Shown here in pieces: positions 62,311 through 62,874 of a stretch of 64,000 bases of DNA. How positions within the stretch are numbered: the first letter of the stretch is position 1; every line of letters starts with the position of its first letter. A program made the position numbers and the translations under genes. Origin of the DNA: an uncultured Chlamydiales bacterium (GTDB lineage Bacteria; Chlamydiota; Chlamydiia; Chlamydiales; JAAKFR01); the NCBI GenBank assembly GCA_963699155.1, contig OY969414.1, positions 2,027,757-2,091,756 on the forward strand, in the 5' to 3' direction. The notes beneath the pieces were generated by a model. It saw only the letters and a list, made by a program, of their open reading frames with translations, was not told the DNA's origin and searched no databases.

Positions 62311-62874
62311 ATGTTTAATTTGGAAACTATTCAAAAGATTCAAATGAGGGCTTTACAAGACCCGGAGTTTCGCAAAGAGCTTTTGGATCAGCCCAAAGAA
62401 ACCCTCAAAAAAGAATATGGGCTCTCACCCTCTTCAGAAATCAAAGTATTGGAAAATTCTGAAAACCAACTTTACCTCGTTATTCCTCAGTTAACTCCTA
62501 ACGAAATGGCAGAACTCGAAAAGAGCAACTCAGGAAATCCACAGTTGGATTGCTTCAATAAAATGTTAGTTCGTTCAATAAAGGAGCCTAACTTCAAAGC
62601 CCAGTTGATGCAAGATCCAAAAGCCACTCTGGAAAAAGAGTGCCAAATCAAACTGCCCAAAGATGCAAAAACTGAAGTAGTCCAAAGCGATAATAAGACA
62701 CTCTATCTCTTGCTACCATCTACAGCGTTGAAAAATGAGCTCAGCGATGAAGAGCTCCATGCCATTGCTGGAGGTGTCGTCCCGATTGTCCTTGCTGGTG
62801 TTGCTCTTGGCTCATTGTTTGTTCTGGGTGCTGTTCAACTTGGACTACTCATTCACCGCGCTGTAACTAGGTAA
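62311..62874 (+). CDS. NHLP-leader (nitrile-hydratase-like leader peptide) RiPP precursor with tandem-duplicated leader
   Basis: AAGGAG RBS before ATG 62311; two NHLP units (RALQDPEFRKELLDQPK...YLVIP; RSIKEPNFKAQLMQDPK...YLLLP); ELSDEELHAIAGG double-Gly site; 32-aa core. Confidence 0.85.
   Translation: MFNLETIQKIQMRALQDPEFRKELLDQPKETLKKEYGLSPSSEIKVLENSENQLYLVIPQLTPNEMAELEKSNSGNPQLDCFNKMLVRSIKEPNFKAQLMQDPKATLEKECQIKLPKDAKTEVVQSDNKTLYLLLPSTALKNELSDEELHAIAGGVVPIVLAGVALGSLFVLGAVQLGLLIHRAVTR

Follow-up and report, generated by a model that had tools for sequence, protein, structure and literature searches.

What is made by a small gene that encodes two tandem leader domains of the nitrile-hydratase-like NHLP family and a single short hydrophobic tail, and what is the doubled leader for in a chlamydial genome? 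The gene lies in a 64,000-nucleotide stretch of contig OY969414.1 from an uncultured Chlamydiales bacterium (this whole 64-kb stretch is called the window below), and an earlier note on this DNA had taken it for an orphan precursor of a peptide made on ribosomes and modified after translation (RiPP), either of a proteusin-like kind or repurposed with a membrane anchor. Here, we confirm the protein as a true NHLP-family precursor whose leader is duplicated and which has a Gly-Gly site. With moderate confidence, we infer from sequence comparisons that a 32-aa peptide is cleaved off after Gly155 and exported in trans, and that this peptide is probably unmodified, class-II-bacteriocin-like and membrane-active, and not a proteusin. 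NHLP precursors themselves are already known; what appears to be new is one whose leader is duplicated and whose core is bacteriocin-like, in a chlamydial genome that seems to lack a maturase and to possess dedicated exporters. The gene is built as follows.

62311-62874, + strand: precursor open reading frame (ORF) of 187 aa plus stop, read from the sequence and matched by TIGR03793
62311-62496, + strand: NHLP unit 1, residues 1-62, without a Gly-Gly tail of its own; supported by the two hidden Markov model (HMM) stretches, the AlphaFold2 model and internal BLASTP
62497-62538, + strand: linker, residues 63-76, from the translation; helical at 63-71 in the AlphaFold2 model, with lower confidence
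62539-62775, + strand: NHLP unit 2, residues 77-155, with the terminal double-glycine motif; from a TIGR03793 stretch and the paralog alignment
62776-62871, + strand: predicted core or released peptide of 32 aa, residues 156-187, from translation and composition

The doubling of the leader, claimed in the earlier note from the letters, is supported by several comparisons. The leader_NHLP profile TIGR03793 matched the precursor with 98.2 bits (cut-off 50.9, E 1.8e-28) in two stretches, and Pfam NHase_alpha also matched it in two (40.0 bits, cut-off 27.2). BLASTP of unit 1 against unit 2 gave 31% identity across 58 aa (E 4e-10), thus the doubling is a real internal duplication. The best TIGR03793 stretch spans residues 83-155, equivalent to profile positions 7-77 of 77, and ends in the double-glycine motif ELSDEELHAIAGG (residues 143-155; 62737-62775, + strand), the canonical site that had been proposed. 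The linker between the units contains neither a Gly-Gly site nor a core-like segment. AlphaFold2, run on an 18-row alignment of doubled paralogs, returned a model with a predicted local distance difference test score (pLDDT) of 79.6 and a predicted template modelling score of 0.72, the latter predicting that both units pack against each other; block means of pLDDT within residues 1-140 were 78 to 97, and each unit formed three helices and a hairpin (in unit 1, helices 4-16, 18-26 and 28-36, and a beta-hairpin of strands 43-48 and 53-58). A structural match to the enzyme family was likewise obtained, as every one of the 38 best matches listed by Foldseek against the PDB was a chain of nitrile hydratase alpha or of thiocyanate hydrolase, headed by 1ire_A (E 2.8e-4, TMq 0.49).

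The gene belongs to a large family within its genome, which is a single contig of 2,399,326 bp with 47.5% GC. A whole-genome TIGR03793 scan gave 31 matches at E <= 1; the 31st (12.1 bits, 6 stop codons) was discarded as noise, and the 30 that were kept, all without internal stops, fall within 17 intact ORFs, of which 13 are doubled and 4 have a single unit. All but one of these exceed the TIGR03793 cut-off, the remaining one reaching 49.3 bits. The genome-wide search that had been suggested for paralogs and C39 transporters was therefore productive (17 NHLP ORFs, two C39 matches), and the word orphan applies only locally, given 17 paralogous precursors and two export sets in the genome. In 12 of the 17 paralogs Gly-Gly occupies one alignment position, right behind a conserved E-L-S-D-x-E-L, and the sequences diverge beyond it, which makes a leader-then-core pattern. 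The tails are diverse, some being hydrophobic and Gly/Ala-rich and some amphipathic and Trp-rich, all with 0 or 1 Cys. Several cores close with a common W-I-x-D-K-x-T-G-K-like motif, and the L-I-H-R-A-V-T-R of the studied gene looks like a variant of it.

The predicted core agrees exactly with the position and composition given in the earlier note, with no Cys, one Ser and one Thr. It also holds 4 Gly and one GxxxG, has a grand average of hydropathy of 1.71 and a net charge of +2, and ends in the cationic HRAVTR. Its resemblance to class IIb bacteriocins comes from TIGR03949, which matched the whole protein with 26.1 bits (cut-off 21.5) over residues 142-174, and leader end plus core with 29.3 bits. 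Only one other TIGR03949 match exceeded the cut-off, in a paralog at genome position 897577 (22.3 bits), 1.19 Mb off. The nearest clusters in the ESM Atlas were NHase_alpha leaders with class II bacteriocin names; since their scores were 0.87 at best, they serve as a lead only. As in the unmodified, two-peptide class IIb bacteriocins of the lactobin A / cerein 7B type (TIGR03949), a Gly-Gly end is followed by a hydrophobic, Gly/Ala-rich GxxxG peptide of ~30 aa with a small positive charge, and modification enzymes are not involved in that class. Class IIb bacteriocins have a short double-glycine leader, whereas the leader here is a folded double domain of 155 aa; moreover, no gene for a partner peptide or for immunity adjoins the precursor, and it is a diderm chlamydia instead of a Firmicute that would produce the peptide.

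No recognisable modifying enzyme was found in the genome. Searches gave no match to YcaO, LANC_like, Nif11 leaders or the LanM dehydratase domain DUF4135, the last of which the same search did detect in 3 of 3 relatives that served as positive control. All 11 Radical_SAM genes fell into housekeeping families of NCBIfam (MtaB, MiaB, RimO, MqnC, MqnE-like, HemN, HemW, two RlmN, EpmB and LipA), and there is no PoyD-like radical-SAM peptide epimerase among them. Within the window the only radical-SAM genes are those for MtaB and the MqnE-like protein, and neither of the two C39 matches of the genome falls there, which is what the earlier note had said of the window; the search that it suggested for radical-SAM or YcaO enzymes in the rest of the genome yielded no candidate maturase. 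This result, obtained with known enzyme families, speaks against a proteusin formed by epimerisation and for an unmodified product: because the genome holds no recognisable modifying enzyme and the core is free of Cys, the product is most likely unmodified. With the proteusins of the polytheonamide type the precursor shares a leader of NHLP type and a core that is long and aliphatic; unlike theirs, its genome yielded no epimerase-like radical-SAM gene. Of the trans-matured system proposed earlier, processing in trans is plausible, with two export sets and one intact C39 domain at hand, while the proteusin or epimerisation part is left without an enzyme.

The surroundings of the paralogs gave a similar picture. 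An all-against-all BLASTP of 181 ORFs located within 6 kb of the 17 precursors revealed identical copies of an insertion sequence (IS) near three loci, one paralog group of 254-265 aa near two loci, and a few pairwise matches between unrelated housekeeping genes; beyond these IS copies and local or pairwise groups, no recurrent neighbour family that could be a maturase or an immunity protein was found across the 17 loci. The IS copies are two-ORF elements, 99.6-100% identical, at genome positions 1,334,432-1,335,363, 1,620,563-1,621,959 and 1,700,226-1,701,439, less than 2 kb from the precursor loci at 1,332,628, 1,619,836 and 1,699,416 / 1,701,763. Two small ORFs with two predicted hydrophobic segments and no NCBIfam match adjoin NHLP paralogs (1,509,572-1,509,949 and 2,176,019-2,176,327) and could be candidate immunity proteins; only these two paralogs have such a neighbour, and there is none beside the studied gene.

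These findings bear on the possibility of a true RiPP, in which the core would be modified (by epimerisation, N-acylation or methylation) by an unrecognised enzyme encoded elsewhere before cleavage and export, the doubled leader providing two docking surfaces. We consider this unlikely, as YcaO, LanC and LanM dehydratase domains gave no match in the genome, the radical-SAM genes are housekeeping without exception, the 17 loci share no recurrent neighbour family, and the cores have at most one Cys and few Ser or Thr. Its appeal lies in the leader, since NHLP leaders are described (PMC12537861) as rigid domains of protein-like character onto which modifying enzymes dock. The aliphatic core, which the earlier note had argued to be suited to epimerisation, would also fit, as would the GNAT acetyltransferases flanking a doubled-leader cluster in genome G034 and the use of NHLP leaders with LanM and YcaO-TfuA in chlamydial relatives (see below).

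A candidate route of export is offered by the three-gene NHLP export cassette (HlyD-like, ABC1-C39, ABC2), defined by Haft, Basu & Mitchell 2010 (PMC2887384). Each of the two Peptidase_C39 matches of the genome stands within one such cassette, identified by HMM scores.

Genome 2,198,513-2,206,492: export set 1, with TolC-like, HlyD-like, ABC1-C39 (2,201,395-2,203,542) and ABC2 genes
Genome 568,186-573,394 (locus L013:10187-15395): export set 2, with HlyD-like, ABC1-C39 and ABC2 genes and no adjacent TolC-like gene
HlyD-like adaptor (TIGR03794, cut-off 156.2): 199.0 bits in set 1; 143.2 bits in set 2, just below
ABC1 (TIGR03796, cut-off 853.3): 910.8 bits in set 1; 903.6 bits in set 2
ABC2 (TIGR03797, cut-off 709.4): 685.6 bits in set 1, just below; 770.8 bits in set 2
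TolC-like gene of set 1: Pfam OEP, 31.4 bits (cut-off 22)

Four of the six cassette proteins thus exceed the cut-offs, and neither cassette adjoins the studied gene. The C39 domain of set 1 matched 6mpz_A (LahT150) with 142.9 bits (E 6.7e-41) and retains both the Cys of the Q-M-E-A-x-E-C-G motif and the His of N-H-F. LahT150 is a broad-specificity double-glycine protease and a routine tool for cutting off NHLP leaders (PMC12537861). The set-2 adaptor lacks ~145 central residues that are present in the set-1 adaptor. A single-unit NHLP gene is found 2.4 kb from the set-2 cassette. Just upstream of the set-1 operon there is a class-D beta-lactamase-like ORF (2,197,074-2,197,844, - strand; locus L023:5075-5845), which gave 202.2 bits with NF012161, short of the cut-off of 250, and adjoins a redoxin gene and kdpABC.

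On this basis, we propose the following course of events. The folded, soluble double leader would hold the greasy core in solution and prevent its activity while in the cytoplasm, and would carry the ELSDEEL..GG recognition motif. The C39 domain of the set-1 exporter would then cut after Gly155, and the set-1 system, with its TolC-like, HlyD-like, ABC1-C39 and ABC2 components, would pump the 32-mer through both membranes. The product would be an unmodified, class-II-bacteriocin-like peptide active on membranes, with competing bacteria, the host membrane or the inclusion membrane as candidate targets. A separation of precursor and exporter is not unusual for the family: in Haft et al. 2010 (PMC2887384), NHLP precursors are described far from export and modification genes, and some species as having precursors but no known maturase. 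Like other members of the NHLP family (TIGR03793), the precursor has a leader scoring over the HMM cut-off, a nitrile-hydratase-alpha-like fold and a similarity that extends family-wide up to Gly-Gly, and its genome has a large set of paralogs scattered away from the exporter together with a HlyD / ABC-C39 / ABC cassette. Unlike them, its leader is tandemly duplicated, with a first unit that has neither Gly-Gly nor a core of its own, its genome is devoid of LanM, YcaO or any other known maturase, and its core is aliphatic and Cys-free, while the cores described for the family are rich in Cys, Ser, Thr or Gly. Two NHLP-type units in one polypeptide also occur in Delftia and Acidovorax, as fused tandem NHLP-Burk pairs (TIGR03795); these are described as two whole precursors joined (PMC2887384), whereas here the leader alone is doubled, with a single core behind it.

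Several observations weigh against this proposal. The core alone matches no family, and the Gly-Gly end of the leader accounts for about half of the TIGR03949 score (other families, matching that end alone, reach ~14 bits), therefore the bacteriocin family is a matter of resemblance and not of membership. In the AlphaFold2 model the core has low confidence (pLDDT < 50 for residues 160-187), and an uncharged stretch of 26 residues followed by HRAVTR would suit a transmembrane anchor equally well. A canonical Gly-Gly is missing in 5 of the 17 paralogs (in three it is GA, AG or DG, and two lack such a site), so that cleavage cannot be family-wide. The set-2 C39 domain has Ser in the column of the catalytic Cys and Gln in that of the His. 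The pairing of the precursor with an exporter is putative; the nearest one, set 1, lies ~108 kb away and set 2 ~1.5 Mb away. The searches for maturases covered known enzyme families only, so that an enzyme of an unknown family might still exist, and two GNAT acetyltransferase genes flank the doubled-leader cluster of G034. Finally, a scan without a chlamydial promoter model found no sigma-70-like promoter in 62100-63000, and no immunity-like gene adjoins the precursor gene, which is wedged between mtaB and radC.

Some of these points would be expected if the protein were never cut, and an NHLP-fold double domain were instead tethered to the membrane by its C-terminal hydrophobic helix, perhaps after being moved whole by the Cys-less C39-like exporter. 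C39-like domains without catalytic residues occur in exporters that leave their cargo uncut, and the set-2 domain resembles such domains; the set-2 exporter may be non-proteolytic and move uncleaved cargo. The altered set-2 domain, the five paralogs without Gly-Gly and the anchor-like stretch with its basic end all agree with this explanation. We nevertheless regard it as quite improbable. Gly-Gly and the acidic E-L-S-D-x-E-L mark the boundary of leader and core in 12 of the 17 paralogs, an intact LahT-like protease domain is encoded in the genome, and many tails, both in the paralogs and in foreign proteins with a doubled leader, cannot be anchors because they are hydrophilic, Trp/Arg-rich or Gly/Ser-rich.

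We also compared the source genome with its relatives. Its chlamydial placement and, by inference, an intracellular lifestyle are reasonable, because the closest relatives of its MtaB in public genomes are from metagenome-assembled genomes (MAGs) of Chlamydiales or Chlamydiae (best 78% identity) and because it encodes two full-length TLC-type (ATP/ADP-translocase-type) nucleotide transporters, a family matched in 0 of 14 control genomes. Energy parasitism is typically marked by transporters of the ATP/ADP-translocase type. In a set of 41 related genomes, 11 were NHLP-positive and 12 had ABC1; ABC1 was matched in 9 of the 11 NHLP-positive genomes and in 3 of the 30 NHLP-negative ones, a co-occurrence that we take as support and not as a statistic, since related genomes are not independent. 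In a sample of the phylum with 200 scored genomes, 26 had an NHLP match at E <= 1e-8 and 20 had one over the cut-off (one further genome had candidates and was left unscored), and family f19, with its small genomes (listed at 1.0-1.2 Mb), gave no match in any of the 28 that were sampled. The following clusters were found in relatives.

G003:C23 (locus L046:6408-13022): LanM gene with a single-leader NHLP cluster
G002:C1, near 872,512-875,494: LanM gene with a single-leader NHLP cluster
G031:C3 (locus L045): NHLP genes beside YcaO, TfuA and LanM genes
G034:C46 (locus L044:4038-16589), another family: five tandem doubled-leader genes adjoining a TolC / HlyD / ABC1-C39 / ABC2 operon

G002 and G003 belong to the same genus as the source genome and have single-unit precursors only, of ~100 aa, adjoining a LanM gene in both; in G003, the one of the two whose cores were read, these are short and 5 of 7 bear Cys. 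The clusters of G002, G003 and G031 are apparently uncharacterised chlamydial lanthipeptide and thioamide-type clusters. The remark in the earlier note that no RiPP pathway has been characterised in chlamydiae still stands as far as characterised pathways go, none having been found, and needs to be qualified by these relatives with LanM or YcaO-TfuA genes beside NHLP precursors. In the open-access literature we found no paper on a doubled NHLP leader or on NHLP precursors in Chlamydiota; a survey lists "RiPP-like" clusters in some chlamydial families (PMC9666466). The doubled-leader cores of G034 are Gly/Ser-rich, and G178 has one 167-aa frame with two NHLP units. Judged from gene content, chlamydiae pair NHLP leaders with classical RiPP enzymes, and the source genome is an exception to this predicted pairing, with the enzyme missing and the doubled form expanded. 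It is like the prochlorosin-type class II lanthipeptide systems, where a single LanM serves numerous dispersed NHLP or Nif11 precursors, and like G002 and G003, which have exactly that set-up, in having many scattered precursors with a common leader served in trans; unlike them, it has no LanM, and its cores have no Cys in the studied gene and 0 or 1 in the paralogs.

The immediate neighbourhood of the gene contains the following features.

62300-62305, + strand: Shine-Dalgarno-like AAGGAG, 5 nt before the ATG at 62311, read directly in the sequence
60986-62224, - strand: mtaB, divergent upstream neighbour (TIGR01579, 453 bits, cut-off 357)
62867-63547, - strand: radC, convergent downstream neighbour (NF000642, 246.5 bits, cut-off 180)
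End of the window, opposite strand to the precursor: C-terminal piece of HflX (TIGR03156, 72.5 bits, under the cut-off because it is a fragment at the window end)
62882-62905, scored on the - strand: hairpin, a possible terminator by consensus match only, 8 nt past the precursor stop and within the radC 3' end

The ribosome-binding site of its own and the opposite orientation within the hflX-radC-mtaB run, both pointed out in the earlier note, are confirmed here, the three neighbours all being on the - strand. Translation from an alternative in-frame ATG at 62284 would yield 196 aa; the entry in the protein collection is this longer form. The 3' ends of the precursor ORF and radC overlap by 8 bp. 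By its family match, the mtaB product is a housekeeping radical-SAM methylthiotransferase and no maturase. No NHLP ORF was present in the vicinity of mtaB in any of 80 related loci, and the radC-mtaB gap is variable across the 28 loci that have radC, with other small ORFs in the five that were read; the precursor gene is therefore a lineage-specific insertion and no conserved operon member. In the chlamydial MAG loci L124, L121 and L048 this gap holds a conserved ORF of ~80 aa, and in loci L099 and L101 an ORF of ~200 aa on the opposite strand with several hydrophobic segments. Further along the window, a 323-aa ORF without an NCBIfam match at E <= 1e-5 (60018-60989, - strand) lies between a glgB-like gene and mtaB.

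A lineage-specific gene whose position is taken by no ortholog in any of the 80 related mtaB loci might also be an evolutionary leftover, if the lineage had lost the LanM of its congeners and the precursor genes were drifting without function. The LanM beside NHLP precursors in G002 and G003, missing from the source genome, would agree with such a loss, and so would the degraded cleavage sites of five paralogs and the base composition, the GC of the precursor gene being 0.418 against 0.508 in its flanks and that of all 17 paralogs being below their own flanks. Decay is hard to reconcile with 17 of 17 ORFs intact, 13 of them with a derived doubled leader that the congeners lack, with two full-length exporters and with a leader that AlphaFold2 folds confidently; besides, the cores are long and nearly Cys-free and have a common C-terminal motif, therefore they are not decayed lanthipeptide cores. 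We hold this explanation to be very improbable.

The purpose of the doubled leader deserves consideration, since NHLP leaders have been studied as docking modules for RiPP enzymes and a widespread form with two, sometimes four, units, found here without a known maturase, raises the question of what the leader is for. Solubility, self-protection and exporter recognition are candidate roles. As a tentative and rather doubtful extension, the duplicated NHLP domain may be a distinct, hitherto undescribed leader class in which docking onto enzymes has given way to a self-contained function as chaperone or pro-domain: packed together as one globule, the two units would mask and solubilise a membrane-lytic core until the LahT-like exporter cuts, the form would have expanded to 13 doubled genes after the loss of LanM, and the peptides, released by an intracellular bacterium, would target the membranes of host or inclusion, or else co-infecting bacteria. 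If this were true, it would amount to a peptide arsenal previously unrecognised in the chlamydial phylum. Seventeen bacteriocin-like precursors and two type-I-like exporters in a 2.4-Mb genome, together with two TLC transporters, point to a heavy investment in secreted peptides by some environmental chlamydiae. The contrast within the genus, with LanM and single leaders in the congeners and doubled leaders with nearly Cys-free cores in the source genome, offers a natural test of the co-evolution of leader and core.

The doubled leader is not confined to this genome. A word-indexed homolog search with the studied protein returned itself only, and one with the alignment profile returned 7 proteins, 4 of them from the source genome; a related-locus pattern search with the studied protein gave 330 matches, none of which encodes a relative. 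When 1.84 billion cluster representatives were searched with a profile made from 18 doubled proteins, 8,253 of them scored at E <= 1e-3, including 47 at E <= 1e-30. Units were counted with a custom HMM of unit 2 in the best 150 hits, 14 of which were the query's own rows. The other 136, foreign top-scoring representatives, comprised 132 with two units and 4 with four, so the doubled leader is not singular; as doubled chlamydial proteins were the input of the profile, the top of this list is biased towards proteins of that kind. Most of the foreign doubled proteins have an ..A-G-G site followed by varied tails (hydrophobic and Gly/Ala-rich, Cys-rich, or Arg/Trp-rich). An organism label was found for one of ten foreign proteins looked up, a Simkaniaceae MAG protein named "hypothetical protein", and two members of another cluster were likewise named. 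The four-unit metagenomic proteins (P0008, P0013, P0014 and P0025) are 230-406 aa long; two of them have Arg/Trp-rich cores and one a core of Gly/Tyr repeats.

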